Below are positions 1 to 30,809 of a DNA stretch of 64,000 bases, in pieces. Position numbers and translations under genes: made by a program. The notes beneath the pieces were generated by a model. It was not told the origin of the DNA and did not search any database. It worked only from the letters and a program-made list of their open reading frames with translations. Every line of letters begins with the position of its first letter. Position 1 is the stretch's first letter. Origin of the DNA: a virus; the IMG/VR virus record IMGVR_UViG_3300041809_000308, positions 14,797 to 78,796 of that record. The stretch is one strand, 5' to 3'.

Positions 1-1355
1 ATGACCGAGCGATTCAGGAAGCTAAGGGGCGCGAGGCTAATTACTTCTACTCAGACACTGGGCTTTCACCACCCGCCCGTTCAGCATGGAATAGATTGAA
101 GCAAAGATACCCTGTGGAGAGTCTACGTGGGAAAGCAGAAGCGTATGAAAACTACAATCCAGAGGCCAAGAACAAAGGACTGTACAAAGTCCCACGCCTT
201 CGTATCGACTTGAACAAAGTGGCTGCAATCTCTCCTGCCGACCGCACGCTGTACCATGGCACCAACGATGAACAGGAGTTCGATACCCTGAAGCCCACGG
301 GTGGCGACCCAGTTGTGTGGCTGGGCGAGTTGGACACCGCACGCGACATCTATTCACGAACCATTCGTGGTGGTCGTGAACGTGTCTTTGAAGTGAAGTT
401 GAAACCTGATGCAAAGATTGCCGACCTGCTTGATGTGAATCAACCAATAACCAAGAAGGTACAAGATTACTTCCTGCGCTGCGTTGGTTCTCGTATTTGG
501 GATCATGGTTGGCCTGACATTATGAACTACATGGCTTTCCATCGCCATGACCATGAACTAATACCCCTGCTCAAAGAAGCTGGATTTGATGGTGCCATCG
601 TGATGGATAAAGGCAGACCGCGTGGAAGCACCCAATCGCGAGAGCATCACTCTGTCGCGCTGTGGAACATGGATGCTATTGAATCTCAACAGGAGATAAA
701 GACCGCCTCGGCTTCTACTGTAGGTTCTGCGTTCTGGAATAAGGTGCAAGAAGACGCTCTTGCAGGAATCGTCTATCACGGTACTACATTAGAGGTTGCT
801 GACCTCATCCTATCCACAGGCTTCCGTGGATTGGAATGGGACGCCATTCTCAAGGACGTGCTGGCAAAATACAACATGACTGAGACCGACATTCCAAAGA
901 AGATGTTCAAAGTGCTACAGGAAACGAAACGCAGCTACGAGGCGGAGGCTCATCTGGTTAGTACATCGCCGGGTGGGAACGTGGCTCTTCGCTGGGCGGG
1001 AAGTGGCGGGGAAGTACCGCAGCAAATCGAAGCATACATTCTCGGAAAATACAGTCCTCGCGAAGTTAAAAACTCACGACTTCATGGTGAACCCGCTATC
1101 CTGAAGTGTCGTATCAAGGAATTTCAATCGACGCCGCATTATACACGCATCAAGCAGTCGGTCGATGGGTTAAACCGTCTCATTGCCGATGGTGGGATCA
1201 CTGGGGTTTTCTCTCCCCATGAAGCGGCGGAAGACATGTGGGGCACCTACACGAATTTCCTTTGCAAGCCGGAGGAATTAGAGGTAGTAGAGATTATCAC
1301 GGGGGCGAGACTCCAAGAGTTAAGCCAGCATCCATTGGGGGTGTCAGTTGAATAA
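1..1355 (+). CDS. Polyvalent protein 1, 5'-truncated (GNAT C-terminus + two ART-like modules)
   Basis: Frame 3 is open from the window start (DRAIQEAKGREANYFYSDTGLSPPARSAWNRLKQRY, like the GNAT module at ~11.2 kb), so TTG at 96 is not the true start. LYHGT...GFDG and VYHGT..ILSTGF modules are separated by KVAA and KTAS linkers. Confidence 0.75.
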   Translation, partial: DRAIQEAKGREANYFYSDTGLSPPARSAWNRLKQRYPVESLRGKAEAYENYNPEAKNKGLYKVPRLRIDLNKVAAISPADRTLYHGTNDEQEFDTLKPTGGDPVVWLGELDTARDIYSRTIRGGRERVFEVKLKPDAKIADLLDVNQPITKKVQDYFLRCVGSRIWDHGWPDIMNYMAFHRHDHELIPLLKEAGFDGAIVMDKGRPRGSTQSREHHSVALWNMDAIESQQEIKTASASTVGSAFWNKVQEDALAGIVYHGTTLEVADLILSTGFRGLEWDAILKDVLAKYNMTETDIPKKMFKVLQETKRSYEAEAHLVSTSPGGNVALRWAGSGGEVPQQIEAYILGKYSPREVKNSRLHGEPAILKCRIKEFQSTPHYTRIKQSVDGLNRLIADGGITGVFSPHEAAEDMWGTYTNFLCKPEELEVVEIITGARLQELSQHPLGVSVE

Positions 1356-4300
1356 CCAATTGTTAAAACAGAAAGTTGGAGTGTGGGCTCGTGGGGCATC
1401 TGAAGCCCCTGATTATGAGCAAGAGCGCGATAAGAAATTCAATGAATTAGCATCAGCACAACGAGGTGAACCCGAAACGGCAATGCTCCGCTGTCAGATG
1501 CATCCTCTTGGAGCCGGGATCGGTCCGAAGACGCTGGAACATGTAGGTGACCTCACGCATCGAATGTCAGAAAATTTCTCTCATTTTCACGGTCAGTACC
1601 TGAATGTAAAAGACAAGGTGGAAAAAACCCTTTACTGGTTGACTAATCCATACGGTTTTGAGCGAGAAATGTCAGGAAATCTCCTCAATAACTACACAGC
1701 GCGTGCAGACGACCCAAAGGTGCGAGGACGCAGCTTTGATGAATTAAAGCAAGACTTCTTCTCCAAATGGGATGACTACGCCGCTGCTCACGCCAAACTT
1801 ACCGTCTACAACAAAGCGCAAGAACATGCCCGTGGGGCGGCTATAAGTCTAGGCCGTCGTGATTTCAGAATGGCGATTCTTTATCTTGAAGCCCTAAAGA
1901 AAATTCTGGATGCAGGGGAAGAAGCTTGGATGACGGCGGCGGGTCAATACACGCCGGGGAAAGTTGCCGCTACATCGACAGTCACCGCTTCCATTGAAAA
2001 AGAGGCGGGGTTGGCTAATATTCTTAAAGGACTGGGTGTAGCACTACTTGGTTTGGCGGGAACGGCGGCTGTGCTCAAGCCAGCACCCGCTCCTACAAGC
2101 CCCAAGGATAAAGCGTTGAATCAAATTGGTCATGAGATGATTAAGCGCCTCCCACAGTCCATTCAAAATAAAATTGGTGACCCCAATACCATCACGTTCC
2201 GCGAGGGTGAACCTGACGGTAGTCAAAACAGCAAAGAAATCGCTGAAGTGGCTGAGGGGTCTCGGGTAGTCTATATCAACCCAAAATATGTGAATGATTT
2301 CTTGCACACCAATTTGTCTGACCAATGGACAGCACATGAAACAACTCATATCATGCAGGATGAACTCGACCCACAGGGAAACAGATTTCCGGCCACAAAC
2401 CCGTCCGATCCGTATGGCAAAATGAAGGATGTTGAAAATTCTTGGAAAACTTTACAAGGGCTTCGAGCTAAAGGCGACCGGATGTGGGATCATTCTCGTG
2501 AGGAACAAGCAGCTATCGTGCAGGAATACGAAGCTGCCGTTGATATGCGAGACTTAACGACCGACCCGGCTCAGAAGAAACAGATTGAACAGAAAATACA
2601 GGTCTATCAACAGTATATCGCAGACTATGACCAGTTAAAGGTTGGAAGTCATCACAAGCTGTACGACCATGCTAACCTCCCCAACTTCTATGATCTGTTC
2701 GAATCAGGCAAACCCGGCTGCTCTTTTGGCATTTACGACTTGCTTGAAGGTGACGATTGGGAACCATATGAAGACGAAGCTGAAAAATTGGCTGCTGAAC
2801 AGGGGGTTGACTTAAAATCCATGGCCGATGATTGGAAAGACCAATGGATTTACGACAATATTGCTCGTGCTGACCTCGAAGCAAAATTCAACAAAGTTCG
2901 AGACCATTTCGCCAAGATACAGTTTCCTCTAACTGTCTATCGGGCTATCGACCTCCCCGACGGTATTGATGAATTGCGCGTTGAGAAAAAACCCTATCGA
3001 GGACCGAATAAGTTCAAGCAATATCATTTGGATGACGAAGTGTTCGGCCATTGTTGGGCATGGGATGAAAGGGGGGCTAAAGCTTATGGTGGAACAAACC
3101 CCTTAGGTTCACTCAATGAAGACACCTACATTTTCCGTGGTGAGATTATATCTTCCAACGATATAGACTGGGAAACTACATTACAAGTCAACTTCATGAT
3201 GCCAGAAGAGCATGAGATTCGTGTTCTTAATGGTCGCTCTATCAAAATCACTGGATATAAACAAAACGGCGGTCAGTGGCTTGTACCTGAAGAAAGTTTC
3301 AAGAATGTAGTTGCCAGCCATACTCCACAGCGTCTTCCAACTTGGATTGAGTTCAGAGGTTCTGAGGAAGACGATGAAGTTGAACAGGAGTTTAACGAGT
3401 GGGTTAAGATGTATCGTAAACGTAAATTCCCCATGAAGGTGTGGCGTGTAGCCACTCTGCCTCAGGGAATTGCTTCTCTGCGTACTGAACAAAATGAAAT
3501 TGGAATCTATTGGACATGGAATATCGACTCAGCCGAGGCAATGAACGGTACAGGTGTCGATGGAGAAAACAATTGGTTGCTAGAAGGGGAAATCGAAGAA
3601 GACGCTGTTGATTGGTTTGACACTTTGACAGCAAACTTAGACCCCATTCACGGTGACGATGAATGTGAAATCACCTTAAAAACGGGCGCAAAGGTGCGAC
3701 TGTTGAGGTATGCCCCGTGTATGCCCGGAACCCCTAACAGTTGGTTAAAAAAGGACACCTTCAAACCTTTGAACAAAATAGTCATCGCGTCAAGCCCCCT
3801 CTTGGCTTCGCATAAAACTCCGCCTCTGTCAGACACCGTGTATCCAAACACGGATGCTGACAATGAATTTGAACTCAACTCGGGTGAGGGCTCAAACGGT
3901 TATGCCAATATTCCAGAGCGCGTGGATGGCGACGAGACAATGCCGAGCATTGAATCTTTGCTCCCAAGACAAAGTGCCCTTGAGGGTGACGGGCCGGTTA
4001 GCTTCTTTGAAGAAGTTGAGAATCCGCACAGCGTGCAACCTTTACACGCACCTGATCCGCCGCCACTTGAAGAGGAAATGAAGACCGCAACCGTCGCCAT
4101 TCGCCGTGGTGAAATTGACCCGGCTGGTGCTTACTTCTCTCTACCGGGGCAGAGCACATACCACGATGAGGAGATGGTTGGAGTTGATCCCGGTCTCCAC
4201 AGTTACGATGTAAGCGGTGTAAACATCGCTGACACTTCAAAATTGGGGGTCGCAGTCTCCATTATTGAAGAGGCTATGAAGAGCGCCAAGACCGAGCGGG

Positions 4301-7300
4301 AGAGGGTTAGATTATCCGAACTCCTTCTTATGGCAAAGGTCAACGGACCATTCATCAACTACATAGACAACGACCAACTCCCACTGCCCGAGGCTGCGAA
4401 GCGGTTGGGCTATGACGGCATTCTTGTATGGGAGAACGATGACATCGCCAACCCATCATCGGCTTTCATCTGGAACACAGGCAAGGTGAAGAAGGTTGCG
4501 GCACCCGCCTCCGCTGTACTTCCCTCCGACTTTGAACAGTTTTGCCAGAAGTATGGTGGGTTCATGAAAGTGTTCGGTGAAATCGCCGATTTTGGCAGCG
4601 GCGATTGGGAACAGTATGCCGAGTTCTACGAAACAGATGAGCAAGAAGAGTTTGATGCATTACCTGATTCAGAAAAAGAAAAGGTGATGGAACGTCGTGC
4701 GTACGAAGACTGGGAGTATCGCTACAACGAATTGAGAGCAATGCACGCGAGTTGGAGTTGGCCGCTCAAAGTATGGCGTTGCGTCACTCTTGAGAACATC
4801 CAACAACTCAAGACAAAAGGAATCGGGGTTTATTGGTCATACGAAGAAGGTGCAGCACAGGCTCATTGGGGGCAGGGTGGTCGCCCTTACACCTTGGAGG
4901 GTCAGATTACTGAGAACGCCGTGGACTGGGAAAGCACTATCTATGCCAACCTTCACCCGTCTCTCGGTGAAGACGAGAAAGAAATCCGTCTGAAAGATGG
5001 AGCCCCTGTGAAACTTTTGCGATGGGAGGACACCACAGGCAAATGGCACAACGCTTTGCCAGAATGGAAGAGAGTTAAAGCCGCAGTTAAACCGCCAAAA
5101 TCTGAAGCCCCCATTTGGGGCAGATGGTGGGTCACACCGACCGGAGAATTCGTTCCCGCGATAGGCACGGGAAAATACGAAGGCCGAAGCATACACGATG
5201 GTGGACAATTCGGATTCGAAGATAAAGGCAAATGGGGTACGGATTACTATGTTCCCGCCGAAGAAGCGGCGTTGGAGGCGGGGTATACTCGTCTGATTGT
5301 CGAGCCCAGCATTGTCTATATGCAGTTCTGGTCACGGTCTCAAACTGAGAAAAAGGCTGGCGAGATTATCCGTCGTGTTCCAGTCACCGTGCGTTGGGTT
5401 GAAGTAGCATGGAGTGTTCCAACCCATGGCTATCAAAAACTTCCATTAGCTGAGGCCGAAGAACGTTTCCAGAATACGGGAGATGAAACAAGAGTAATAG
5501 CCTCAACCAAAAAATACCTATACCACGTAACCTACCTTGGCAACCTTGATAACATTGCTCAGTCCGGTCTCACACCAAATGCCAATACTGGTATCGGCGG
5601 ACCAGCATTGAGAGAATACAAATCGGGTAAGATATTTCTATCTGATGCCGGGGGTGTGTTTTTTTGGCTCAACCGAGCGGAACAATTCGCTTATCACAAT
5701 TCAGATAACCCAGCCGATGATGGACTCATCCCGGTCGTGCTTCGCGTTAGAGCCCCAAAAAACTTGGTCAAAGACGAAGAGGGCTCAAGCGATTCCGGGC
5801 ACGAAGCGTTCTGGTGTCCCAATGTGGAATCAGGGATTGAAGTATGGACAGGAGACAGGTGGGAGAACATCTACAGTGCTAATCTCAATCCGCAAGAATT
5901 TGTGGATGAGGAAGGATACATACAAGACTCAGCACTGAACTCTCCAAAACTTGCGACAGATGGAGATGCCAATGCTTATGTTCCACGTGAAGAGGCAGAA
6001 TCCCCGGCGTTGCACCGTGAGCCTATGTTCGAAGATGAGAAGGCAGCATCGGAGGCACCATACGCCGCCTACAGCCCACGTCACAGCATAGACAACCCAC
6101 AGTTGCACAAAGACCCGGTGTTCGAGACTGACCAAGAGGCTTGGGACGCTGCCCTGCCTAACCACAAAGTTGGCGGGAAGAAAAAATACGGTCCTCTGTT
6201 CCGAGAAGTCCCCGTTGTTGAGGGAGGAGAGGCTTGGGATGGCCGCGATGTGTGGGAATACCCCGTCAATGTAGGAGCCAGTCCTGATGAAGCCCCACAA
6301 GCTAACATCTCTCAAGTCATTAAAGATTTGGTGAAGGAATATGGTGAAACTCCACTTCAAATAAACCAAGGAAATTGTGATAGCTTCGCTTTTGATGTAG
6401 CTGAACGTGTAGCTGGATGCATAGTGCTCGAAGCTGGGGGTATGGTGTGGGAGGAGTCTGAACACCCCGCACATCTGTTCATCTACTATCAAAACAAGTT
6501 CTACGACGCCGCCCATCCCAACGGTGTGGCTCACTGGGAAGACCTGTACACGTTGGAGAGAAAGAAGAAAGTCGGAGCGAAGGAAGACCTACTGTCTCTC
6601 AAATACTACCTCACCATGACGCCGGAACAGAAGGCGGAAGAGGTTGCACGCACATTCACAGAGACCTTTGTCGATTGGCTTGAGGAAGAGGAAATCCAAC
6701 TCCCTGCTCCTCCCAAGCGGAAGCCTGTTGCTCATGAGCTACCCACTGCACTGCCTCATGAAGGCCCAGAGGGCTGGGATGTAGTTCAGGCTGATGGAAA
6801 AATGCGGCTGACAAATGGTGGGGCGGTTCCGGCTGGAACACTCGCCTTGAAGAACGGCTATGGTCAAATTGTCGCCACAGGAAAAGACGAAGCTGAAATC
6901 CTCGCTAACTGGCGAGACCTCGTTGATAAGGGATACAAGGCGGGTGACGCCGAACGTGCCAAGTACGATGGGGACATTCTTGAAGGACTCCGTGAGCATG
7001 ATGAGGATGCATGGGCTGCTATCCCGAAACAAGTCTTCGTGCAGTTCATGGATGCCAAGGAAGACTACCTAATGCAGGGAGACCCGGCAGACTGCCCGTC
7101 CTTCATGCACATGGCTTTCGAGAAGATGCTGCCAAAGCAGTGGCTCATTCACAAAACCGATGACCCGGAGGGAATTTGTGCCAACGGATTTACAATCGGG
7201 ATGCATGATGTGGCTCGACTGGGACTAACGACGTACTACAAAGATTCAGGGAAGATCGGAGGCTACAACTTTGCCTTCACCGCCGATGACGCCAGACAGG

Positions 7301-11200: not shown

Positions 11201-14200
11201 CTATCCAATTCAATCCATGTCCGCCGATGGTAAAAAGGCTTGGGGACGTATTGCTAGGAGATATACAGTGACAACAGTGCCAACTGATACGGTTCATGTA
11301 CCATCAGAAGCCAAAGGAACTGCATATTCCACAGATGACTCGGTGGAGGGGCGTTTTCAAATAGATTTGAAAACTGTTTTGCCGAAAACTGCCGCTGTTA
11401 GCCCCGAGGTCAGCCAGTGGTTCCGTAAAATGGTCGAGTTGAAGAAACAGTTTCATGAGGATTCAATGCTTCCCCTACGCGAGGCCGAAGCTCAAGCTCT
11501 TCGTGAACTGGGTGCGACCGCTTCTCCTGAGGCTGTGGCACAAAGAATCCATGAACTTATCGGTGGGAGGGGGGATATTCAGGACAGGATGTACGACAAT
11601 CCCCCGGAAATCAACAATGAGTACGAGGTTCAACAGTTCGGTAAACCTCTAAGCGAATTGCAAAGAGACGCGGAATTTGAGGACTGGGCTCGTAAGAAGG
11701 GGATTGAGATTCCAGAGTTTCCAAAGACGGCAGCGAAGAAGAACAAGCCCACCGCTGTTGTTATTATGGGTGACTCGAATCTCATTGAAGACAATAAAAG
11801 GGCAGAAAGTTTTTACGAGGAGTTGGGCGCGTTTCTTGAGAAGCTGGGGTTTGAAGTTAGCTTTGATGAGGGAGAACCATACACCGAACCCGAACCAGCC
11901 GACCTCTGGATTGGACACAGTAGAGGCGCAGACAGGCTTCGGTTTGCCCCCAAAGGCACCGCTGTAATAGGCATCAATGTTCCCCAGTCCGATGAGGAGG
12001 TTGATTATCCGATAATTAACAATCCAGATGACGCCATGTCAAAAAGGAAATTTGACCATGGTAAGTTAGTTCGGAGCAGTTGGACAGATGCACATTACAC
12101 CCTCACGGATGAAATGAAAGAAGAGTTGGTTAAGGTCATTTCAGAAGATGGTCTTATTAAGACGGCCAAGAGTCGGTATGTCGGCCCGTATGCCTTTTAC
12201 ATCGAGATTCCCTCGGCGGCTCGTGACCACTTTTGGAATGAGCCGCCAGAACACAACATGGAATTTTGGGCGTTCCGCAACACTCCTCGTGTGCTGAAGG
12301 GTGAACGCATCATCTTCACTATGGATAAGAAGCCTGTGGCTGAGGCTGTGTGTGCCTATGTAGAGAAGCCGGGACAGTCGAAGTGTGAACTTACTGGAAA
12401 ATATGAGAAGCACTGGAAGGTCTACTGGGAGCCTAAAAACTTCAAAAAGTACAAAACTAAGACGGCGGCAGAGCCTGAATCAGTTCCTTGGCAAACAGTC
12501 TGGAAGCACATCGAAAAGAACAATCCGCACGAAGGACCGAGAGACGCCTTTTTAGGAATCCCCATTACTGGTAAGGGTGCCACTTGGGTTAAGGAAACGA
12601 TTCAACCTGATGACCCACGTATTGACCGTAATGAAACGTCTGCGTACAGCCTGTACCCAGCCTCGAAGCGAGATGTGAAGAAGTACATGAAGATGTATCA
12701 ACAGGGTTCTCCCTTTCCACGTATTGTGTTGGGAGTACGGAGCAATAACAAGTTTGTAATCTATGATGGAGCCCACAGACTGCAAGCAGCAGTGAACCTT
12801 GGTGTGCCTATTGATGCTTATGTGGGATACCCAGAAGAAAATGCCCTTACTCAACGCCAAAGTAGCCTCAGAAATCCCTTGTTGGCAAAGAAGCTACCAT
12901 CCCTCAATGAACTGAAGAGGAAATTTGTATGGAAGCCGAACCCCTCTTACTTTGAGTTAGAAGGTGGGTTTGATTCTTGGTATCTGTTGCCTGATGGCTC
13001 CTACTTAAGTAGCAGGTTCAAGGATAGTGGTCATCACATGCACCATGGGCAGCTTGCCGCGTACGCTCTTGGAATGAACCCCGAGGACTTTGATGACGCT
13101 TATATCAAAGAAGACACATGGGACAATATCCGAGAGTTCTCTCGTAAGTTCAAAGCCATACGCATCAATGTGACTGGCGACAGTGTGAATGTGGACGCTC
13201 TCTTTCCACCAACCCCCGCACAGATGCGTGAACTTGCCAGACTGAGCGCGGGGAACAAGAAGGTCTACTGGGCTGACGATAGCCCAATTACAAGCGAATG
13301 GCTGGGTAAGGGAACCTTCCCTGACTTCCAGCGTTGGCTGGACTCACGCTTCGCTCCATCCACCAAGACGGCGGCTGAATATGAGAATGCCTACCAGCAA
13401 GACAGAAATGAATATGCTGGTGAGTGGAAAGAAACCGAGACCGAGGATGAATCCCGTACTCGTTACCGTCGCAAGAACGAGTGGGAACAGTCGTTACTCG
13501 CCGCACTGTCACTCGGAAAAATGAATCCCGATGATGCCGATACACGCAAGTATCTGGCAACGTCTATTGGTAGCCGTTTTGCTGATGCATTCAAGCCATT
13601 GCCACAAGTGTTGTACCACGTCACAACAGCTAAGAGCAAAGTACAGAACGGCGGATTGCAGTCTCGTTTCGAACTCAGTATGCAAAACGGTCTTGGTCTA
13701 GGCGGCGGGGACAACAAGTCCATCAGCTTCACCGAGGACTTGGACATCGCCAAGGGCATTTATAGTGCCATGATTGAAGCTAAGCGCGTTGCTGCCGGTG
13801 AGTTCACAGTTCAGCAAATGATGGACATTGCAGCCAAGGGAGAGGGTGCCGACCGTCCATGGATTACTGAATTCGTTCGTTGGGCTGGTGCCTATCGTTC
13901 ACACAATGAGTGGAGCCCCGGCCAGCCGCTGCCTGAAGACATGCAAGCCATTCTGGAAGGCAAGAAAGTCCAGAGTGTGGGATTTGTTGCTCCCATGTCT
14001 GAGAGCAAGCTTAAGGAGACTGGCTACGAACCCATAGGTGAGGGCTGGCAAGGACGCGACGAGCACTTCTGGAGTGCCTTCAAACGGCCTATGACTCCCA
14101 AGGAGAAGCAGGACGTTGAGTTTGACCAGTACAAGGTCTTCTGCTATGCCCGTGAGAACGCTGGCGGGGCTCTGAATCCCCTGTTCTTCTCTACGGACGT

Positions 14201-17200
14201 TGAGGGGTTGGCGAAGGTTCCTGAGGCAGAGATTGCCATCCTGAAGTTCAAGCCCGTTCTCGGTGCCATGGGGACGCAGGAATCGGCTCTTGGTGAGTGG
14301 CGGACTTACTCTGGTCAAGCTGTACAGTTGGTTGGTGATGTAAGCAAGACAGCCAGTGTCTACGATACCTACACCCCGGACGATGAGGATGACCACCCAT
14401 TGTTTGATAAATTAATCTCATTGAAACCAGCGTTTGTTGAATGCGTTCAAAAACTGTACAATAAATGGAGGCCAACCAAAACCAAATCCGGTGGTCTTTG
14501 TGACGACGTTGCAGCAGCATTCTCAGACATCATCCTGACTCATATAGCCATAGATGACATGGACACTGAACTTGGTGGATACACTGAACATGCATGGATT
14601 GTGGCTTACACTAAATCTGAATCATACGTAGTCGATGTTCCTTTCTGGAAATACGAATTCGGGAGTGGTGGGAACTGGAAGAAACTTCCCAATGTCCAAT
14701 TCACAGAAAACGACATCATAATTTTCCCCACAGATGAACTAATGGTTAAAACGGCGGCTGCCAACCCCCTTGTGATGTACCACGGCACCAGTGAGCCCTT
14801 CACAAAAGTGGATATGAGCAAAGGAGCACAGGGAGTGTTCTGGTTGACCTCCGACCCCAATTCTCTAAAGAGTGGAGAGCGCGGTGCATCAAGCACTAAG
14901 GTTATCTTGCGTTGTTTGGTTATTATCAAGAACCCGGCTGGATGGGAAGAGTATGAAAAGAAAAGTATTGGTGAGTTGAAGCGCGATGGGTTCGATGGTG
15001 TCATTCTGCCTGACCCTGATGGCAGTTTCGACGCCATTGTGTTCAAACCCAGTCAAGTGAAAATCGTGGGGGAGGAAAAGATTGCCTCCGGTTCAGTAGA
15101 AGTCTCACCCGAGGGTAGATTCAAGAACTTCACCCTCTCACTCGAAGAAAGAACTTTGGCAAACAAGCCCACAGTCACGATAAGTGCGTACACCATGGGG
15201 GAAGAAATCTATGTCGGTCATGTTACCTTTGTAAAACGTGATGACGGGAAGCTAGAGCCTGTGAATCTTGAAGTCTCATACAACTACCGTAGACAAGGGC
15301 TTGCTACAGCAATGTACATGTTCGCAGAGCAAAAAACCGGATGCAAAATTGCACCCGCTGTGGAACAAACAAGTAATGGAAGGCGACTGTGGAACCAACT
15401 AAACCGTCCCTTCGGTAATAAAAAAGAAGCCAAACAGTTGAAAGACATTGAAGGCAACAGAGATTTGTTTTCAACTATTGTTAAGGAGCAAGGGCTCACT
15501 GTAGAAACAGACCCCAAAGGCATTCGGTCGGCAGTTCTGAGACAACCCCTAATCCTTCATCACGCTACTCCGAAAAAGAACCTGCTTGAAATCGAAAAGA
15601 ATGGTCTCCAGCCTCGTTCGGATGATGGGTGTTACCCCATCGGGAGGAAACTGTTTCTTGGTCTCGAAGACACCTGTTCTCAATATTTAGGCGGTCTGGA
15701 AAACATTAAAAATAGTGTTGTGTTGGAGGTTACACTTCCGACAGGTACACGTATCTACGACAACGACTTTGAAGCGGATGAAGTGTTTATCCAAACTGCA
15801 ATTCCTCCGACTGGGATTAGAAAAACCGCCGCCCGTGGTGAAGCATGGCGTGGTCACGCTGACCAAAGCGAGTCGGAGGAATCCAAGCGTGCATGGTATT
15901 TAGAAATGCTTAGAAAACTGATTAGTGAGGCGAAGAATACACTTCGTGATGAGGCTGACCCACTAGAGCAAAAGCGTCTGACTGAAGCCATTAAGACCTA
16001 TGAGACCTTAAGAGAGAACATGGGCACACAAGGTATTCTATCCCCATTCAAGAGCGCCCTCCTGAAGTCCGCTGCCGACCTGTGGCACGGTGGACGTATC
16101 TATGGGCCAATTCAGATTCAAGCACCAACAAAAGGTCGGTATGAAGCTGGGCCGGGGTTATATTTGACGACCAGCTACTCGCGTGCATCTTCGTATGCGA
16201 AAGGTGGAGGTTCAACCTTCCTTGTTTCATTGAAGGATGGTCTGAACTTTGCTAATAAGGTTGAGATTCCTTTGAACGAGGGTGCGGAATTTGCCACTCG
16301 TTATTTAGGTAAGGGTAAACTAATCGCCAAGGACTTGAAAGCCAACTGCGAACGCATGAAGAAGAACACGTTCACGGCGGACATCCTCATCAACCTCACT
16401 GTCAACTACGAAGCCGGTTCCGGGAAGAGAGGCATGTACTTGTTGAACTTCTTGGTCGAACATGGCGTTGACGCTGCAATTGAGGAGCAGGGCAACGGCG
16501 AACAGTGGGTTGTTGTTTTCAATCCCAAGGTGGTCACAAAGGTCAGGAAGATTCCCGCCGCTGAGGTCACCCCTGAGATGTGGCATCTTCCGAAAATTGC
16601 AGCTATGACACCAGAACAGATGTTACAATCAGCAAAATTTTGGGAGAGCGCCTGTTTCTCTCACGGTGAACCGGGGAGAGTTCCCGCTGAGTCACTCAAT
16701 TGGAGAGAAGAAACATTTGACCTTAACAAATTAAAGGGGTGGGCTCAAGGAGACTGGGATTGGCTGTATGAAGATGAAAGGGAGAGAGACATCGAGAATT
16801 TCGAGACTCTTGAAGGTGCAGAAAAATTTGTCAAAGAGATGTGCGAAGCTATCAAGGATGGGACAATCGAAGAGATAGTTGTAGCTCAGGGAACGGATAA
16901 GAATTTCTATGTATGGGACGGCAATCACCGTGTGGGAATTGCCCACGTTATTGGTGTAAACACTCTACCAGCATTAGTGGGATACCAGAAGCCAAAGAAG
17001 ACAGCCTCAAAGAAGAAACTTTCCATCCTGTATCTGGATGATTGTCGCGTGCCCGACGACCCTGAGGTCATTCATGTTCACAACTATCAGGAGTTCGTGC
17101 AATATCTGAGCACGCACGAAATGCCTGACCTCATTTCGTTCGACCACGATATTGACCTTGAACACGCACCGACCGAAGAACAAGCACAAAAGCGTGATGA

Positions 17201-19811
17201 CGAATGGCGTGTGCCTTACGAGGACTACACCAAGCCGACCGGCGTAGACTGTGCAAAGTGGCTCGTGTCGCATAACATGCCAGTTAAAGCGTGGCAAGTT
17301 CATTCAGCCAACCCAGTGGGCGGCGACAACATTTGGGAAGTGATGAAAGCCAAATGGCCGCGAGGAGAAGTCTTCTATAACATTCCCCATCACAACGATG
17401 AGAAGAATGTCTACGGCGACAAAGTGCGAAATGGGATGCGTGTAGCTGCTGTCAGGCGAGTATTCCATGGCACCCCAGTCGCCTTCGAAAATTATGATTC
17501 CCATTGTGGGGTGTACTACTTTACAGACGACACTGAATATGCTGACTGGTTTGCGAACACCAGACATGGGATTCACACTGGGGTAACTCAAATCTATGAC
17601 CTAGACTTGAAGAATCCCTTCGATGCTCGTAAAGTGAAAAATCTCACCTTCCAAGAGTACGCTCAACTTCTTGGCATAGAGGAGAAAGACTTACTGTGGG
17701 AAGCCCGGTGGTATGAGACAGGTAAGAAGCGCCCGTTCTGGTACTGGTTCAACAAAATCAGAATGACCTCCAAAGAAGCCTTTCAAGCACAAGGGTACGA
17801 TGGTGTGATTCAAAAAGAGCGCACGGCTGTTTATGGTGCCGAAGCGAAAGCAAATTCTTATGTGGCGTTCTCGCCGGGGCAGTTCAAGAAGACCGCAGCG
17901 GAAGAATTCAACTTGGATGATTATCTCTCCAAGGTGACTTACGAGAACGACATCTACGACGCCCATGGCAACGAAACCTACGGCACCGTCCGCTGCAAAG
18001 GACCGAACGGGCAGACAGTGGGCTACATCGACTACAGTCTTTACACAGACTACGATATACACACGGAGTCCGGTGAACCCGCTGAGGTCATTCATATCAA
18101 GATGATTGAGACCCACCCGGAGGCTCGTCACCGGGGGATTGCAACCAAGATGCTTCAGAAGTTGAAGGCAGACTGTCCCGGCTATCTGCTGAACTGGGGG
18201 GGTCTCACACCGGCAGGTAGTGCATTTCGGGAAGAGTTTGAAAAGAATGTCACCGCAGCGATGCACTGGTACTACCATATCAGCCCAACCATAAATCGTG
18301 CTTCAATTCTTGAACACGGGCTCCGGGCTCAGATACAAGAGTTCATAGACATCAACCGTCCCGCTGGTGTTTATGTGTTCAAGACAGAGCAGAACGCCAT
18401 CAACTTTGCCCACAATACATGGTGGAATTTCTCAGGAGCCGAACGCGGTCTTGATCTTTGGAAAGTAAAAATCGAATCCACAGTGTTGAAGGTCGATGAC
18501 CACCCGGAGGTTAAGGACGCTTACTACACTTCAGATAGTGTGCCGGTAGCCAATTTGAAATTGGAGTCATATTTGACTGAAGACGGTGGAGAGTTTGATC
18601 CTTCGGAAGAAGATGGACACTTGGAAGAAGATGACATCGAATATCTCGATGGGGATAAAACAGCGTCAAAGATAGCTGCACCGCGTGGCATTTACTATCA
18701 CGGTTCTTCCATCAAGAATCTGCGGAGCATTCTCACGCAGGGGCTCGTACCCATGGAGAAGGGAAAGAACTGGCAAGACGATCCCGATGCTGGTTTCTAC
18801 AACCCAAGCCGGGAGAGCTACGGCGGGACATACGTCACCAAGAACCTCATGACTGCCCTTGGTGCTCCACGTGACAAGGGAGAAGAGGGCCGTGAGGTTA
18901 TTGTGTGCATGGAACTCCAGCCCAACACCTTCTACTTGGACGAGGACGACATCAACTTCTACATCTCGAAACCACTCTCGGGAAATCTAAACGACAGTAG
19001 CTACTACATCGGTCTCTACTACCTTGCCAACACGCTTCCTGATGCGGATCAAACTTTCAAGGAGAGCATCGCAGAGATGCGAGATGGCTTCGTGAAGAGA
19101 ACCATCAAGTCCATCGAATTCAAGATGAACAACTACAGCGAGGAGGGCAAACCTCTCCACGAAGGACTGAAAGCACAACTCGCCAAGCTTTTACATGGTG
19201 AAGTGTGGGACGCCTCTCTCAATCGCATGGCAGCACACGCTGCATCGAAGGCATCAAATTATGACAAGGCACACTGGGAGAATACAGTTCACCCACCGAA
19301 GAAGGATGCACAGGGTGAATGGATTGAAGAAGAGAGAGCTACGTTCCCATCGGTCGCCGAAGCTGAGGCTCAGTTCAAAACAGCATCAGAGAAAGTCACC
19401 CGCACCTTGCGTACTCTCGCAACTCGCGGAAACACTACCAATGCTCGTATCCCAACCCCTATCGGATACAGTGGCTCGAATCATATCACGGCTGTAGCAG
19501 AAGTTCGAGATGGCACGAAGTACCGCGAAACTGAGGCTGGTGGGTTTGCTAAGCCATCCCATATCATCGTTCATTATGGCACGCTGCCGCAGAACTTCCT
19601 TGACCAATACAAGGAACGAGTGGGTGACAGGTTCGTGGTGACTAAGCCGGGGGAGGAGCCGCCCCCAATGCCGGAGGAGCCTGACAAGGCACCAGAGATG
19701 CCTGACCCCAACAACATGGAATTCGCTGGTGGCGTTCCTGAGGGCTGGAAGCTATCTACCAAAAAGGAAACCCCGCCACTGGCGGGGTCCAGTGAAGCAC
19801 TGTTACCTTAA
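8250..19811 (+). CDS. Polyvalent protein 3 (3853 aa), about 24 modules: ART-like, GNAT, ParB-like, receiver-like, papain-like, alpha/beta-hydrolase-like
   Basis: Motifs: repeated YHGT..GYDG; GLGQMLYD, RRQGLATAMY and RHRGIATKML (GNAT); YDGAHRL and WDGNHRV (ParB-like); LYLDD..ISFDHD..HSANPVG; IGHSRG. Modules are joined by KTAA/KTAS/KIAA linkers. Confidence 0.85.
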   Translation: MMEHPDYYMEEGCGIYALAVASKYPNAEIYIISRNHGEEWSRSIPYEITHVFCRVPGEGDFDVRGKRTPDQMAADFDTANDYSIKGPWSPQEFYAKFMGNSDNKPLFGTKKDIKEVMTKIAAAPSWIPTFKQLLNEYGGDITKDDKASYDYYVPILSKLKFPLTIYRQIYVNSLDDIKLRGKGKKPGLGRFWADKESLACSHNADEDSGDIEVLLRAVVQPTDIDWLDTFYARIVYGEDEAEISIAPGTPLNVTGMRVNKSKWQVPPPGVKTAASTPVPPDKLSVEIVRVGDVCNVNDYNGYACISKKASGVKVRAYHGTTKNFDVFDTPAMFHVRRKYCEDLIAGQPDGHVVEAILTFKNPADLDTLHMSPSDPKFKEMAKSLEEQGYDGAQYKKEAWIAFYPEQIEIVRPKVAAEVAVQEPEISTPEEDDYAIERQTYGLPKDWKPAKPPEVKRDEPATETQVPKSAPPPVEHKQKVPRQRKQKMPTYTPPTENKAFLRWFGKSKVVGSNGQPLVVYHGTTHDFDVFNTEYGNPENHYGVGFYFTSSRDDTKNYAGVGPDLTSRIDHEAENLVNEWRRWRHGEIDYGVEPPDWVIGGWAEMSDDEKREAFQDMDWSAQLAIAKAEVKKKLVGEHGGAVMPCYLRIVKPVIVAPHGGTYFTLGYTRDGDYKGKLFDAVVRTLTYQFWGDTFGEDAHDGLNAYDFEQKLRKSEAMMDEDIMNEGGPGPVITEIYKNMGFDGIIMENPAQEFRNMGIESGTKHYIVWNPSQIKSALGNVGKFNKKNPSIVASGEEDFHEYIGNCTDDAVVESVFGDATLFAQALEKATPIDDTTMQSDEYGVLIKYDPETDIHSFYKTAAKRIKTVEEIEHLTEDEKELCKKTRPASDKTAMPNYDYSHYTDRETAIKTLNFEYQKYGANVVFSAENPADDRYQPGYLEANIVDDYIVVSDVFIGTSWTGTGLGQMLYDYAISESKKMGLSYFVSYPIQSMSADGKKAWGRIARRYTVTTVPTDTVHVPSEAKGTAYSTDDSVEGRFQIDLKTVLPKTAAVSPEVSQWFRKMVELKKQFHEDSMLPLREAEAQALRELGATASPEAVAQRIHELIGGRGDIQDRMYDNPPEINNEYEVQQFGKPLSELQRDAEFEDWARKKGIEIPEFPKTAAKKNKPTAVVIMGDSNLIEDNKRAESFYEELGAFLEKLGFEVSFDEGEPYTEPEPADLWIGHSRGADRLRFAPKGTAVIGINVPQSDEEVDYPIINNPDDAMSKRKFDHGKLVRSSWTDAHYTLTDEMKEELVKVISEDGLIKTAKSRYVGPYAFYIEIPSAARDHFWNEPPEHNMEFWAFRNTPRVLKGERIIFTMDKKPVAEAVCAYVEKPGQSKCELTGKYEKHWKVYWEPKNFKKYKTKTAAEPESVPWQTVWKHIEKNNPHEGPRDAFLGIPITGKGATWVKETIQPDDPRIDRNETSAYSLYPASKRDVKKYMKMYQQGSPFPRIVLGVRSNNKFVIYDGAHRLQAAVNLGVPIDAYVGYPEENALTQRQSSLRNPLLAKKLPSLNELKRKFVWKPNPSYFELEGGFDSWYLLPDGSYLSSRFKDSGHHMHHGQLAAYALGMNPEDFDDAYIKEDTWDNIREFSRKFKAIRINVTGDSVNVDALFPPTPAQMRELARLSAGNKKVYWADDSPITSEWLGKGTFPDFQRWLDSRFAPSTKTAAEYENAYQQDRNEYAGEWKETETEDESRTRYRRKNEWEQSLLAALSLGKMNPDDADTRKYLATSIGSRFADAFKPLPQVLYHVTTAKSKVQNGGLQSRFELSMQNGLGLGGGDNKSISFTEDLDIAKGIYSAMIEAKRVAAGEFTVQQMMDIAAKGEGADRPWITEFVRWAGAYRSHNEWSPGQPLPEDMQAILEGKKVQSVGFVAPMSESKLKETGYEPIGEGWQGRDEHFWSAFKRPMTPKEKQDVEFDQYKVFCYARENAGGALNPLFFSTDVEGLAKVPEAEIAILKFKPVLGAMGTQESALGEWRTYSGQAVQLVGDVSKTASVYDTYTPDDEDDHPLFDKLISLKPAFVECVQKLYNKWRPTKTKSGGLCDDVAAAFSDIILTHIAIDDMDTELGGYTEHAWIVAYTKSESYVVDVPFWKYEFGSGGNWKKLPNVQFTENDIIIFPTDELMVKTAAANPLVMYHGTSEPFTKVDMSKGAQGVFWLTSDPNSLKSGERGASSTKVILRCLVIIKNPAGWEEYEKKSIGELKRDGFDGVILPDPDGSFDAIVFKPSQVKIVGEEKIASGSVEVSPEGRFKNFTLSLEERTLANKPTVTISAYTMGEEIYVGHVTFVKRDDGKLEPVNLEVSYNYRRQGLATAMYMFAEQKTGCKIAPAVEQTSNGRRLWNQLNRPFGNKKEAKQLKDIEGNRDLFSTIVKEQGLTVETDPKGIRSAVLRQPLILHHATPKKNLLEIEKNGLQPRSDDGCYPIGRKLFLGLEDTCSQYLGGLENIKNSVVLEVTLPTGTRIYDNDFEADEVFIQTAIPPTGIRKTAARGEAWRGHADQSESEESKRAWYLEMLRKLISEAKNTLRDEADPLEQKRLTEAIKTYETLRENMGTQGILSPFKSALLKSAADLWHGGRIYGPIQIQAPTKGRYEAGPGLYLTTSYSRASSYAKGGGSTFLVSLKDGLNFANKVEIPLNEGAEFATRYLGKGKLIAKDLKANCERMKKNTFTADILINLTVNYEAGSGKRGMYLLNFLVEHGVDAAIEEQGNGEQWVVVFNPKVVTKVRKIPAAEVTPEMWHLPKIAAMTPEQMLQSAKFWESACFSHGEPGRVPAESLNWREETFDLNKLKGWAQGDWDWLYEDERERDIENFETLEGAEKFVKEMCEAIKDGTIEEIVVAQGTDKNFYVWDGNHRVGIAHVIGVNTLPALVGYQKPKKTASKKKLSILYLDDCRVPDDPEVIHVHNYQEFVQYLSTHEMPDLISFDHDIDLEHAPTEEQAQKRDDEWRVPYEDYTKPTGVDCAKWLVSHNMPVKAWQVHSANPVGGDNIWEVMKAKWPRGEVFYNIPHHNDEKNVYGDKVRNGMRVAAVRRVFHGTPVAFENYDSHCGVYYFTDDTEYADWFANTRHGIHTGVTQIYDLDLKNPFDARKVKNLTFQEYAQLLGIEEKDLLWEARWYETGKKRPFWYWFNKIRMTSKEAFQAQGYDGVIQKERTAVYGAEAKANSYVAFSPGQFKKTAAEEFNLDDYLSKVTYENDIYDAHGNETYGTVRCKGPNGQTVGYIDYSLYTDYDIHTESGEPAEVIHIKMIETHPEARHRGIATKMLQKLKADCPGYLLNWGGLTPAGSAFREEFEKNVTAAMHWYYHISPTINRASILEHGLRAQIQEFIDINRPAGVYVFKTEQNAINFAHNTWWNFSGAERGLDLWKVKIESTVLKVDDHPEVKDAYYTSDSVPVANLKLESYLTEDGGEFDPSEEDGHLEEDDIEYLDGDKTASKIAAPRGIYYHGSSIKNLRSILTQGLVPMEKGKNWQDDPDAGFYNPSRESYGGTYVTKNLMTALGAPRDKGEEGREVIVCMELQPNTFYLDEDDINFYISKPLSGNLNDSSYYIGLYYLANTLPDADQTFKESIAEMRDGFVKRTIKSIEFKMNNYSEEGKPLHEGLKAQLAKLLHGEVWDASLNRMAAHAASKASNYDKAHWENTVHPPKKDAQGEWIEEERATFPSVAEAEAQFKTASEKVTRTLRTLATRGNTTNARIPTPIGYSGSNHITAVAEVRDGTKYRETEAGGFAKPSHIIVHYGTLPQNFLDQYKERVGDRFVVTKPGEEPPPMPEEPDKAPEMPDPNNMEFAGGVPEGWKLSTKKETPPLAGSSEALLP
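19761..19790 (-). terminator. Intrinsic terminator for the convergent minus-strand gene
   Basis: GGACCCCGCC-AGT-GGCGGGGTTTCCTTTTT on the minus strand. Confidence 0.7.
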
Positions 19812-28914: not shown

Positions 28915-30809
28915 TAGTGAACGTCCCCGTAATACAACGTGTTGAGGCAGTCGCCACAAAGCTTGAACTCGTACTCACGCTCTTCACGATTTGCTGCCTG
29001 AGCGTCTTCGAGATTGCGGTAGCCTTTGTAGTCGGTAATATCTCCGCCGCCGCCATTACAATAGTCGCACCCATCCCAACTGAAGTAAGGCTCACCTTCC
29101 GCTTCAAACAAGCCAGAAGAAATACACTCTGCAATGAAGTTCTGCATCTCTGGAGGAGTGAGACCAATATGCGGCTCATCCGAAGCTACAACTGAAGAAA
29201 GAGAAGCCTTAGGAATAATACGTACAGGTTTGCCTTTGGCAATGCCGTTTTTAACTTTAACAGCGACTCGCTTAACATCGCGCCCTTCGTCTACCCAGTC
29301 ATAGACGAGAGCCTTCTTAAGTGAAGGAGTTAGTATATAGTTGCCTAAACTATCCATGCTGAGCCAGTGGCTGCCTACCGAAATTACGTAACCACTAGAT
29401 TGAGCAAGAAGTGACGCAGCAGCCTTCTTTGACGCCACACGGTCATGACTTGGGTTGTTGGCGTGATGATTGAGAAGACAGTCGCCACAGAACTTTTCGT
29501 GACATGCGGGACAGTCAGTCGGACCTTCGGCGGTGCCGCAACTCTTGCACTTGGGAACCTCCCATTGAGCCGCAGCCTTACTCGCAGCCAGAGCTAAGGG
29601 AGCAAGCGCCTCAAGGGCTTCCCCAGCCCCACCAGCAGCCTCTTCAGCTTCAGCAGCCGGAGCAGCGAGGTCGCCCAATGATCCGCCGCCACCGCCTGAA
29701 TTGTTATTGTCATTAGACTCAGGCGGGGTTGATTCAATTTCATGATTGATGGGAAACTCTTCAGCCAGTTTCAAACCGCCGAAGGCCGCATGAATTGGTT
29801 GCAGTTCCTGCCTGTTGCGATTCTGGTATTTCCAAGCACCGCCAATGTTCTGCATGACTTCAATGAATGGGTTGACTTCTTCGCCGCCCAGTTCCTTGGT
29901 GACATAGGTGTCAATCAACTTGGGAAGATTTGCGAACAATATCTTGAACCAAGCTGGTGACTTGTCAGCGCCCAGTCCCTCTTTCCATTCCGCCCAAAGG
30001 TCAGTGCCTTTCGGGATGTCTCCTTCTCTTAAGTGAGCATAGAGAAGATCGAATATGGAGAGGTATTGAACCACCGTCTCATCGCGATACTTTTTTGAAA
30101 GGTAAGATTCAAAGCCGCGACGGAAGGTCAGCACATCGACGTCGGCGTCTACAGCGTTGTACTCGTTTGGCCGCTTGTGACGATACTGGTCAGCATCCAA
30201 CAGGTTGACATCCGGTTCACCCTCACCGACCTCTTGCCACATGGAGCTAGTGTTCTCTTGAAAGATGAACTGCTGGATGTAGCGGTTGGCTTCGGCGGTA
30301 CGCCAATTAAAATTCTGCATCAAAAACGTGGTGACTTGTCTCTCTAAAGGCAACTCGCGAATGTGGGCTGGAAATTTTTTGATAGCATCTTTGAAATTCT
30401 CAAGGATACTTCTCTCCGCCAAAGCGTTAATGATGATGTGATGGATGGCCTCATCCTGAACTTCAGGGTCTCTGGACATCAACTTGGGGGCGATTCTGGC
30501 TGAGAAGAACCTAGACCAGTTCATCTTCGGGTCAACGGGCAACCCTGCGGCAGCGATGTATTCTTTGACGTAGAGGTCAAAGTCCTTATTGTAGGCGACA
30601 ACCCAACGCATCCACGATGCAAATCGTGCGAGAGTGGAACTGATAGGACGGAAATTAGCGGGTGTGGGTACAGGGTTACCTTGCAGGTTGGCAAGCCTAA
30701 AAGTTGTGCCTTCACTGGATGCAATCTTAGAAGTAACACGGAGGACACCACCATTCGCAGTGTGGACGATAGAGCTAACGTGGATGGGGAACTTAGGCTT
30801 AGAGTTCAT
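28914..30809 (-). CDS. Hypothetical virion-associated protein with zinc-finger modules and K-x-A linkers
   Basis: 631-aa ORF; KLAE, SKAAA, RVASKKAAAS, VVAS; CxxC clusters. Confidence 0.6.
   Translation of the reverse strand: MNSKPKFPIHVSSIVHTANGGVLRVTSKIASSEGTTFRLANLQGNPVPTPANFRPISSTLARFASWMRWVVAYNKDFDLYVKEYIAAAGLPVDPKMNWSRFFSARIAPKLMSRDPEVQDEAIHHIIINALAERSILENFKDAIKKFPAHIRELPLERQVTTFLMQNFNWRTAEANRYIQQFIFQENTSSMWQEVGEGEPDVNLLDADQYRHKRPNEYNAVDADVDVLTFRRGFESYLSKKYRDETVVQYLSIFDLLYAHLREGDIPKGTDLWAEWKEGLGADKSPAWFKILFANLPKLIDTYVTKELGGEEVNPFIEVMQNIGGAWKYQNRNRQELQPIHAAFGGLKLAEEFPINHEIESTPPESNDNNNSGGGGGSLGDLAAPAAEAEEAAGGAGEALEALAPLALAASKAAAQWEVPKCKSCGTAEGPTDCPACHEKFCGDCLLNHHANNPSHDRVASKKAAASLLAQSSGYVISVGSHWLSMDSLGNYILTPSLKKALVYDWVDEGRDVKRVAVKVKNGIAKGKPVRIIPKASLSSVVASDEPHIGLTPPEMQNFIAECISSGLFEAEGEPYFSWDGCDYCNGGGGDITDYKGYRNLEDAQAANREEREYEFKLCGDCLNTLYYGDVH

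Follow-up and report, generated by a model that had tools for sequence, protein, structure and literature searches.

A tetrapeptide marks the predicted module junctions of giant polyvalent proteins in a jumbo phage and recurs in the flanks of its head-maturation protease

Introduction

A motif placed in the flanks of the protease and near the end of the scaffold is the pattern of prohead-protease substrates in T4 and in the herpesviruses. T4 gp21 cuts at L/I-X-E, including in the packaged ART Alt, and phiKZ gp175 cuts at S/A/G-X-E. Alt is annotated as capsid-packaged and as entering the host with the DNA. The maturation (M) and release (R) sites of the herpesvirus assemblins follow the consensus (V/L/I)-X-A↓S, where the arrow marks the cut. 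In phage SPN3US, the prohead protease gp245 cleaves itself and makes motif-directed cuts at A-X-E in head and ejection proteins, and these cleavages mostly remove N-terminal propeptides (PMC10052503). Polyvalent proteins were defined by Iyer, Burroughs, Anand, de Souza, and Aravind in 2017, who drew the analogy with polyproteins and proposed peptidase-mediated release of the domains; the release was ascribed mainly to embedded MPTases, and assemblin-like peptidases were described as rare C-terminal fusions on some polyvalent proteins (PMC5512222). Here, we analyze a 64,000-nucleotide stretch of viral DNA (hereafter the window), in which giant open reading frames (ORFs) of the polyvalent type carry a short tetrapeptide, typically K-[T/I/V]-A-[A/S], at their predicted module junctions, and in which the same tetrapeptide recurs in the flanks of the head-maturation protease.

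The window covers bases 14797-78796 of a viral contig of 78.8 kb from IMG/VR (IMGVR_UViG_3300041809_000308), whose CheckV completeness of 25% corresponds to a genome of ~300 kb. The source is a soil jumbo myovirus of ~300 kb that is kin to the Tunturiibacter phage Tunturi_5 and farther from Bacillus phage G. Its major capsid protein shares 71.5% identity with that of Tunturi_5 (a 309-kb myovirus), 50% with that of an uncultured phage of 485 kb, and 35% with phage G gp27. A megablast search of the head region against phage records gave no match. The same protease is encoded on more than 100 related metagenome contigs, 80 of which were kept as loci, and the comparison set contains 17 giant ORFs from related phages. 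The relatives include G002, G003, and G004, the last of which is complete (299,875 bp).

An earlier reading of the window from its letters and translated ORFs (the sequence-only reading) interpreted three giant ORFs as polyproteins, packaged in the head and cut at short basic linkers by the maturation protease into separate injected enzymes. As a whole, that interpretation is partly supported by the analysis described below.

Results

Giant ORFs and their junction tetrapeptide

The four ORFs concerned are as follows (aa, amino acids).

L002:9419-10732 (+), 4.1-5.4 kb upstream of window base 1: fourth polyvalent ORF, 437 aa, with InPase (PF18823, E 5.7e-37)
3-1355 (+): ORF A, C-terminal 450 aa of a giant polyvalent protein; the full ORF (L002:11148-16151, 1667 aa) begins upstream of the window
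1348-8250 (+): ORF B, giant polyvalent protein, 2300 aa, with an HETTH zincin-like motif at aa 330
8250-19811 (+): ORF C, giant polyvalent protein, 3853 aa, ~21 modules

The three giant plus-strand ORFs exist as the sequence-only reading stated, the first being the tail of the 1667-aa ORF that starts upstream. The four consecutive plus-strand ORFs (437, 1667, 2300, and 3853 aa) are polyvalent effector proteins and together comprise ~8,000 residues. At almost every module junction stands a tetrapeptide of the form [K, less often V/I/R]-[T/I/V/S]-A-[A/S]. The sites in the window are listed below, and all the motif coordinates given by the sequence-only reading are correct.

216-227 (+): KVAA junction, ORF A; ART-like YHGT strand 12 aa on
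699-710 (+): KTAS junction, ORF A; start of homology unit A 1450-1662
1960-1971 (+): KVAA junction, B aa 205; HSPs (high-scoring segment pairs) to relatives stop here
3307-3318 (+): VVAS junction, B aa 654
3781-3792 (+): VIAS junction, B aa 812
4081-4092 (+): KTAT variant, B aa 912, candidate junction
4492-4503 (+): KVAA junction, B aa 1049
5074-5085 (+): VKAA junction, B aa 1243; six HSP ends
5494-5505 (+): VIAS junction, B aa 1383; ART-like YHVT strand 9 aa on
7564-7575 (+): KRAS junction, B aa 2073; three HSP ends
8604-8615 (+): KIAA junction, C aa 119
9060-9071 (+): KTAA junction, C aa 271; end of HSPs 144-279
9486-9497 (+): KVAA junction, C aa 413
10611-10622 (+): IVAS junction, C aa 788; end of large ART unit, with SITAG or MTAAE there in relatives
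10815-10826 (+): KTAA junction, C aa 856
11385-11396 (+): KTAA junction, C aa 1046; end of GNAT-like unit
11724-11735 (+): KTAA junction, C aa 1159
12459-12470 (+): KTAA junction, C aa 1404; six HSP ends
13365-13376 (+): KTAA junction, C aa 1706; start of unit 1706-2033
14346-14357 (+): KTAS junction, C aa 2033; end of unit 1706-2033
14748-14759 (+): KTAA junction, C aa 2167; start of ART unit 2167-2277
15078-15089 (+): KIAS junction, C aa 2277
15822-15833 (+): KTAA junction, C aa 2525
16065-16076 (+): KSAA junction, C aa 2606; the next module corresponds to whole stand-alone proteins of ~190 aa, aligned from the first residue past the motif
16593-16604 (+): KIAA junction, C aa 2782
16998-17009 (+): KTAS junction, C aa 2917; then cREC_REC module
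17439-17450 (+): RVAA junction, C aa 3064; then ART module (FHGT)
17889-17900 (+): KTAA junction, C aa 3214; then GNAT module
18249-18260 (+): VTAA junction, C aa 3334
18657-18680 (+): double site KTAS-KIAA, C aa 3470-3477; start of unit 3474-3805
19377-19388 (+): KTAS, C aa 3710, internal occurrence absent from the list in the sequence-only reading; no junction: six homologues that lack the motif align through it

In an unbiased k-mer scan of the three giant ORFs, KTAA is the top 4-mer (11 versus 0.21 expected) and KTA the top 3-mer (22 versus 2.5). KTAA is likewise enriched in the 17 giant ORFs of relatives (21 versus 1.05), where it is outranked only by catalytic words of the ART domains, such as YHGT. 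In ORF C, KTA[AST] occurs 13 times, while 0.28 is expected from shuffled sequences and the maximum in 2000 shuffles is 4; K-x-A-[AS] occurs 20 times against 3.2 expected. ORF B is weaker in strict K-x-A-[AS] (5 versus 1.9) and, as had been read from the sequence, uses the variants V-[VI]-A-S and KTAT (its sites are KVAA, VVAS, VIAS, and KTAT). Over the 50,221 aa of giant ORFs, the third position of the motif is Ala, less often Gly, and the frequency at the fourth position decreases in the order Ala, Ser, Lys.

Motif positions and module boundaries

The position of the motif should be considered together with the boundaries of homology, which were determined in two independent ways. All giant ORFs of the clade were compared with each other by BLASTP, and distinct HSP ends were counted. 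In the three ORFs, K-x-A-[AS] is no more than 8 aa away from 48 of the 159 HSP ends, where 9.7 are expected and 2000 randomisations reach 27 at most; the corresponding number in the relatives' giant ORFs is 138 of 934 (35 expected). Among the 50,221 aa, proximity to an HSP end holds for 65% of the K-[TIVS]-A-[AS] sites and for 86% of the V-[TIVS]-A-[AS] sites, compared with 22% of all residues. Residues 2160-3345 of ORF C were also searched with phmmer against 1.8 billion representative proteins, giving 2172 matches. The best stretches are six motif-to-motif units (query residues 8-118, 447-623, 623-758, 758-905, 905-1055, and 1055-1175), the motifs being located at 8, 118, 366, 447, 623, 758, 905, 1055, and 1175 of the query. 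The stretch ends fall within 10 residues of a motif in 89% of cases, versus 14% for random site sets. Many of the matches are entire stand-alone proteins of 130-200 aa, with the alignment beginning right after the motif, and the Pfam domains cREC_REC and GNAT in ORF C begin just past motifs. Both homology tests thus indicate that the motif marks module boundaries, and the claimed enrichment at boundaries over interiors is borne out by them.

The sequence-only reading also had the modules often beginning with a catalytic strand right after the linker. Of 11 ART-like strands ([YFW]H[GVN][TS]), 7 follow a motif within ~15 aa, and one more does so within 25 aa.

Homologous modules stand in a differing order and neighbourhood from phage to phage. 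For example, residues 1703-2037 and 3474-3805 of ORF C match G003 457-797 and 1131-1475, respectively, and residues 2167-2277 match both G002 2865-2981 and G004 1879-1984. The new junctions keep a variant of the motif (SITAG, MTAAE, KKAAE, QTAAV, KSAAT, or KAAAQ). As judged from these alignments, related phages have exchanged modules, and the breakpoints coincide with the motif, as the sequence-only reading anticipated.

At the 22 sites examined in ORF C, every synonymous codon for Lys (two) and for Ala (four) occurs, at approximately background frequency. Given this free variation, selection acts on the peptide and not on the DNA, and a DNA-level signal was ruled out on this ground. The 10 residues on each side of the motif have the same hydropathy and polar fraction as random positions, which rules out a generic flexible linker. 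The joint is therefore essentially the tetrapeptide itself. Of the "short basic linker" described in the sequence-only reading, the tetrapeptide at the boundaries remains, and no linker extends beyond the four residues.

Head-maturation protease and its flanks

The minus strand of the window encodes recognisable tail sheath, head-maturation protease, and major head proteins. The features of the head region that bear on the motif are as follows.

47538-48413 (-): head-maturation protease, 291 aa, assemblin/T4 gp21-like fold (predicted)
48306-48317 (-): KTAA, protease aa 33-36, within the N-flank of the core, which is disordered and varies in length; predicted N-terminal autoprocessing site
47583-47594 (-): KAAS, protease aa 274-277, in the disordered C-tail; predicted C-terminal autoprocessing site
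44532-46958 (-): scaffold-like protein, acidic, low-complexity, 808 aa; adjoins the protease gene
44583-44618 (-): KTTAAS...KIAS, scaffold aa 781-792, 15-20 aa from the C-terminus
41273-42238 (-): major capsid protein, 321 aa

The protease gene adjoins the scaffold-like gene, with a GIY-YIG homing endonuclease gene inserted between them, and lies 5 kb from the major capsid protein gene; the order in Tunturi_5 is identical. The only sequence-family match of the protease is PHROG 18299 "head maturation protease" (E 6e-16). Its own family numbers 1315 homologues at E ≤0.001.

In the alignment of protease orthologues, K-[TSVQ]-A-[AS] is the sole conserved element in the variable N-terminal stretch, and F-A-K-x-A-S is the sole conserved element in the variable C-tail. 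The N-flank contains [KR]-x-A-[ASG] in 106 of the 111 anchored close homologues (17% expected), and the C-tail contains [KRM]-x-A-[ASG] in 109 of them (22% expected). The motif is also found at a greater distance. Phage G gp19, which is 28% identical, has VKTAAK right before the core; behind the core stand EKVAS and LKIAS. In the phage G clade, the tail carries [KR]-x-A-[ASG] in 107 of 120 homologues versus 11.5% expected, nearly always as [KR]-[VI]-A-S. When 44 sequences from the two clades, which share 25% identity, are aligned, Lys33 and Ala35 are at least 90% conserved, and His105 and Ser162 are invariant. Residues 3-9 of the protease (F-K-K-T-A-N-A, with invariant Lys5, Ala7, and Ala9) include a third motif-like element, K-T-A-N.

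An AlphaFold2 model of the protease was built on this 44-sequence alignment, which includes the phage-G-clade homologues (mean predicted local distance difference test score, pLDDT, 77). An earlier model from 18 sequences was discarded, since its pLDDT was 52 and its Foldseek list was meaningless. The confident core in the retained model is residues 45-255 (pLDDT above 90). The segments with pLDDT below 50 are 1-16, 28-39, 106-109, and 260-291, and both motifs are located in low-confidence flanks that abut the core. In a VIA-align comparison with 48,161 representative chains, the best match is the varicella-zoster virus (VZV) protease (1vzv_A, Z 9.6, root-mean-square deviation 3.1, 119 aa), followed by T4 gp21 (5jbl_A, Z 9.0, root-mean-square deviation 3.6, 127 aa) and the human cytomegalovirus (HCMV) protease (8j3s_A, Z 7.7). 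The Kaposi's sarcoma-associated herpesvirus (KSHV) protease ranks sixth (1fl1_A, Z 6.0), so that assemblin/gp21 structures make up four of the six best matches. Foldseek with the same model gave no significant match, the best being the pseudorabies virus protease (E 0.2), and a search against PDB sequences found nothing. The VIA-align ranking, together with the best Foldseek hit being an assemblin, supports the label of assemblin fold for the modelled protease, and the sequence-only reading, which had assigned this fold class to the ORF, agrees with the model in this respect. Despite the shared fold, the protease is a separate, uncurated sequence family.

A Zn-ribbon-like insert (CSFCG...YCHH) is located at residues ~172-188, between the proposed catalytic Ser162 and Glu209. 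Its Cys residues are invariant, and the insert is kept from this clade to phage G. To our knowledge, nothing like it is known in T4 gp21 or in the assemblins.

Scaffold, capsid protein, and distribution of the motif

Near the C-terminus of the scaffold-like protein, the relatives keep [KR]-x-[VT]-[VTI]-A-S ahead of a conserved D-[IV]-x-x-A-L-F-G tail. The Ala/Lys-rich low-complexity stretches elsewhere in the scaffold yield many loose K-x-A matches, which are mostly uninformative. The N-terminal LLKTAGGRQKLAAS of the major capsid protein is invariant in 39 relatives and hence uninformative; it is missing from phage G gp27.

For the genome-wide control, strict K-[TIVS]-A-[AS] was counted. In the complete relative G004, the head-side block contains 11 occurrences against an expected 1.4, the giant ORF 3 against 0.36, and the tail side none against 0.6; in the 72,746 aa that belong neither to the head block nor to the giant ORF, there are 10, where 11.8 are expected. 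The contig of the window gives a similar distribution, namely 25 versus 1.6 in the giant ORFs, 8 versus 1.8 in the head-side block, and 1 versus 0.6 on the tail side. The remainder of the contig has 2 versus 1.1, both in the InPase ORF. As far as these counts indicate, the excess is confined to the head-block proteins and the giant ORFs. The G004 count agrees with the expectation of the sequence-only reading that non-virion genes would not be enriched.

Domain content of the array

The array consists of ~40 independent enzyme modules, which include ART-like, GNAT, InPase, cREC, ParB-like, and zincin types and many of no known type. ORF A contains a SprT-like zincin, two GNAT domains, and ART-like modules; its HELAH (HExxH) sequence is at aa 522, and the Pfam SprT-like match is weak (E 0.0015). 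ORF C contains ART-PolyVal (PF18760, three stretches, E 1.8e-43), two GNAT domains, and cREC_REC, in addition to a weak PARP-like match and a ParB-like PHROG match. HExxH was searched for in ORF C and none was found, despite the motifs being densest there. The 437-aa InPase ORF has KTAS junctions at aa 148 and 303, after the InPase domain, and belongs to the same array. The PHROGs that its InPase domain matches carry the annotations minor head protein, virion structural protein, and DarB-like antirestriction protein. The zincin MPTase module is kept in relatives and in Tunturi_5 gp321. Several unrelated domains are combined in one chain, the signature domains ART-PolyVal, InPase, and MPTase (HExxH, weakly SprT-like) are represented, and the proteins are phage-encoded near virion genes, as in the polyvalent proteins of Iyer et al.

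The array lies ~7 kb from the first gene of the head block, on the opposite strand. Tunturi_5 encodes its polyvalent protein gp321 within the module of virion genes, with the head-tail connector on one side and tail genes on the other; its polyvalent ORFs, gp321 and two others, have 1365, 1501, and 1279 aa. Coupling between the giant ORFs of the window is tight. The start of ORF B precedes the stop of ORF A by 8 nt (window 1348-1355), and the GTG start of ORF C overlaps the TGA stop of ORF B (GTGA, window 8248-8250). Between the InPase ORF and ORF A is an ORF of ~107 aa with HEMVH (HExxH; L002 ~10780-11105, +), which resembles a stand-alone SprT-like metallopeptidase and is a candidate alternative processing enzyme. 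Longer proteins of the same modular type exist. A single open frame of 5490 aa is found in the relative G012:C1 at ~112.8-129.3 kb (L096/L097), and another representative protein (P0007) has 5005 aa.

Homing-endonuclease-like genes flank the protease gene on either side and recur at other places in the head block.

46894-47541 (-), 48418-48999 (-), and 30806-31612 (-): homing-endonuclease-like genes (GIY-YIG, HNH)
42996-43778 (+): homing-endonuclease-like gene, head block

Two more paralogues, at 59407-60087 and 62893-63660, correspond to GIY-YIG-type genes of G004.

Discussion

Proposed processing of the effector precursors

The junction tetrapeptide is probably the recognition site of the assemblin-fold prohead protease, the effector precursors being cut in the prohead and the modules ejected with the DNA. 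We infer packaging, cleavage, the scissile bond, the completeness of cutting, and the number of products from sequence. In this scheme, the precursors encoded by the four ORFs would be built into the prohead, where the protease at 47538-48413 would recognise [K/V/I]-[T/I/V/S]-A-[A/S], probably with the scissile bond between Ala and the next Ala/Ser. It would trim its own N- and C-flanks, free the scaffold from a C-terminal capsid-binding peptide, and cut the polyproteins at the junctions into separate modules. These separate small enzymes would stay in the capsid and then be ejected along with the DNA. The four-residue junction would act as a universal adaptor, by which modules become exchangeable between phages as cassettes. 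The wider proposal, a true polyprotein strategy of a jumbo-phage clade in which a K-[T/I/V]-A↓[A/S] protease cuts ~8,000 residues into ~40 free enzymes inside the capsid and the site is the universal cassette adaptor, is offered tentatively.

Alternative explanations

It is hardly credible that the motif arose by chance or from composition, or that it reflects a feature of the DNA such as a repeat or a hot-spot of recombination. Ala, Lys, and Thr are common residues, and loose K-x-A matches abound in the low-complexity scaffold. This explanation is refuted by the 13 occurrences in ORF C where 2000 shuffles reach 4 at most, by KTAA being the top 4-mer, by the free use of synonymous codons, and by the lack of enrichment in the 72,746 aa of non-head proteins of G004. 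A tetrapeptide that is not cut, serving as a docking or packaging signal (for scaffold or portal) or persisting as a neutral adaptor fixed by recombination, would leave the giant proteins intact like N4 virion RNA polymerase (vRNAP) or TraC1. We consider this unlikely. N4 vRNAP, ArdC, and TraC1 are delivered uncut according to Iyer et al. (PMC5512222), which gives the idea a precedent; however, unrelated folds (ART, GNAT, REC, and ParB-like) have no reason to share a common structural cap, the unconserved codons exclude a DNA-level recombination signal, and the motif also occurs in the disordered flanks of the protease and near the C-terminus of the scaffold. More doubtful still is cleavage of the junctions by the zincin (SprT-like/MPTase) metallopeptidases of the array instead of the prohead protease, either before packaging or after injection. 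Such enzymes are at hand, with HExxH in ORFs A and B, the small HEMVH ORF upstream of ORF A, and an MPTase module conserved in relatives and Tunturi_5 gp321, and MPTase autoprocessing has been argued for polyvalent proteins (PMC5512222). They would leave unexplained why the motif flanks the serine protease core in more than 95% of homologues, phage G included, why it occurs at the scaffold C-terminus, and why it is enriched across the head block, and ORF C is densest in motifs yet has no HExxH.

Several observations weigh against cleavage of the junctions by the prohead protease. ORF B holds stretches of ~450-500 aa without a recognisable site. In the farther relatives, the strict motif is only ~3-fold enriched in the giant proteins, and the junctions are looser (SITAG, KTGAP, and KQSAD). 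The motif flanks are not linker-like in composition, which suits an uncut tetrapeptide. The protease has no match in Pfam at E ≤0.001, where one of 18 members matches Peptidase_S78_2 at E 0.05, and no match in NCBIfam. The assignment of its catalytic residues by comparison with T4 gp21 depends on an aligned stretch of low probability: hhalign against the single T4 gp21 sequence places Ser162 on Ser140 with a probability of 0.3%, the His-to-Ser spacing being 57 versus 55. His85 and Ser140 are what we take to be the catalytic residues of T4 gp21. Two of the eight head-block motif matches are in homing-endonuclease genes and are probably due to chance. The tail sheath (55219-58800, -) has KTAA at aa 855, conserved in 17 of 20 orthologues, from which it follows that conserved occurrence alone does not prove a site; this conservation is probably structural, being in a conserved region, though the sheath is not a head protein. 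The Tunturi_5 paper contains no virion mass spectrometry, and the phage G proteome paper gives no cleavage sites. A search for ART-PolyVal in phage G gave no match, and hence phage G cannot test the polyprotein part.

Implications

If the junctions are cut by the capsid protease, they would be the first case in which a cleavage grammar is defined for the polyvalent proteins of phages, as well as a double-stranded DNA (dsDNA) phage counterpart of RNA-virus polyproteins. It would become possible to test directly whether polyvalent proteins work as intact chains or as freed domains, given a specific predicted site and a mutable proposed catalytic residue, Ser162; a cultured relative, Tunturi_5 on Tunturiibacter psychrotolerans, exists. 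Giant unannotated ORFs could then be divided into functional units of ~100-350 aa, many of which match stand-alone proteins of no known function, the mature boundaries of thousands of uncharacterised injected effectors would be readable from metagenomic sequence, and the discovery of anti-defence and host-takeover enzymes would be faster. Cleavage at the junctions would also explain the evolution of the arrays by cassette exchange. If they are not cut, it must still be explained why one tetrapeptide is common to the module junctions, the tail of the scaffold, and the flanks of the protease.

Comparison with known systems

The array resembles the polyvalent proteins of Iyer et al. in that many unrelated conflict and effector domains are joined per polypeptide, in the presence of ART-PolyVal, InPase, GNAT, and zincin MPTase, and in the location of the genes beside virion genes. 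The described proteins have 2-15 domains each, whereas one ORF here has ~21 and the array ~40. In addition, no cleavage-site grammar was described for them, while a separate prohead protease is proposed here to act at a defined tetrapeptide (PMC5512222).

With the prohead systems of T4 and the giant phages, the locus shares one short motif across the protease, head proteins, and proteins that are packaged or ejected, as well as the T4 gp21 fold class as far as the model indicates (Z 9.0). Here, the motif is common to the protease, the scaffold, and the giant-ORF junctions, with the excess confined to the head proteins and the giant ORFs. Those systems differ in that they do not dice dozens of globular enzymes from one chain, and their motif is of the x-X-E type in T4, phiKZ, and SPN3US, in contrast to K-[T/I/V]-A-[A/S].

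The likeness to the herpesvirus assemblins lies in the modelled fold (VZV, HCMV, and KSHV proteases), in sites that flank the protease domain, and in a site ~15-25 residues from the scaffold C-terminus, like the maturation site of the herpes scaffold. The sequence-only reading compared the junctions with the V/L-x-A↓S site; the Ala followed by Ser/Ala is common to both, but the herpesvirus sites have hydrophobic-X upstream, whereas Lys and a beta-branched residue are found here, so that the P3 rule is not kept if the cut is at A↓A/S. Moreover, herpesvirus assemblin is fused to the scaffold, whereas the phage protease is encoded by a separate gene, and herpesviruses have no effector polyprotein substrates.

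Polyproteins in RNA viruses of eukaryotes are also enzymes translated as one chain and split at a repeated short site by a virus protease. The locus here belongs to a dsDNA tailed phage, the proposed enzyme is a capsid-maturation protease, the proposed fate of the products is packaging and injection instead of service as replication proteins, and there is no homology.

The novelty asserted by the sequence-only reading stands in part. No description of a junction grammar of this sort was found in the literature searched, whose coverage is incomplete, so that absence is not proven; the polyprotein analogy and peptidase-mediated release (PMC5512222) and the motif-directed cleavage of ejection proteins (PMC10052503) were known already. 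What is new is the combination of a tetrapeptide at nearly every junction of ~40-module arrays, the same tetrapeptide in the protease flanks across a deep clade, and cassette exchange at the site.

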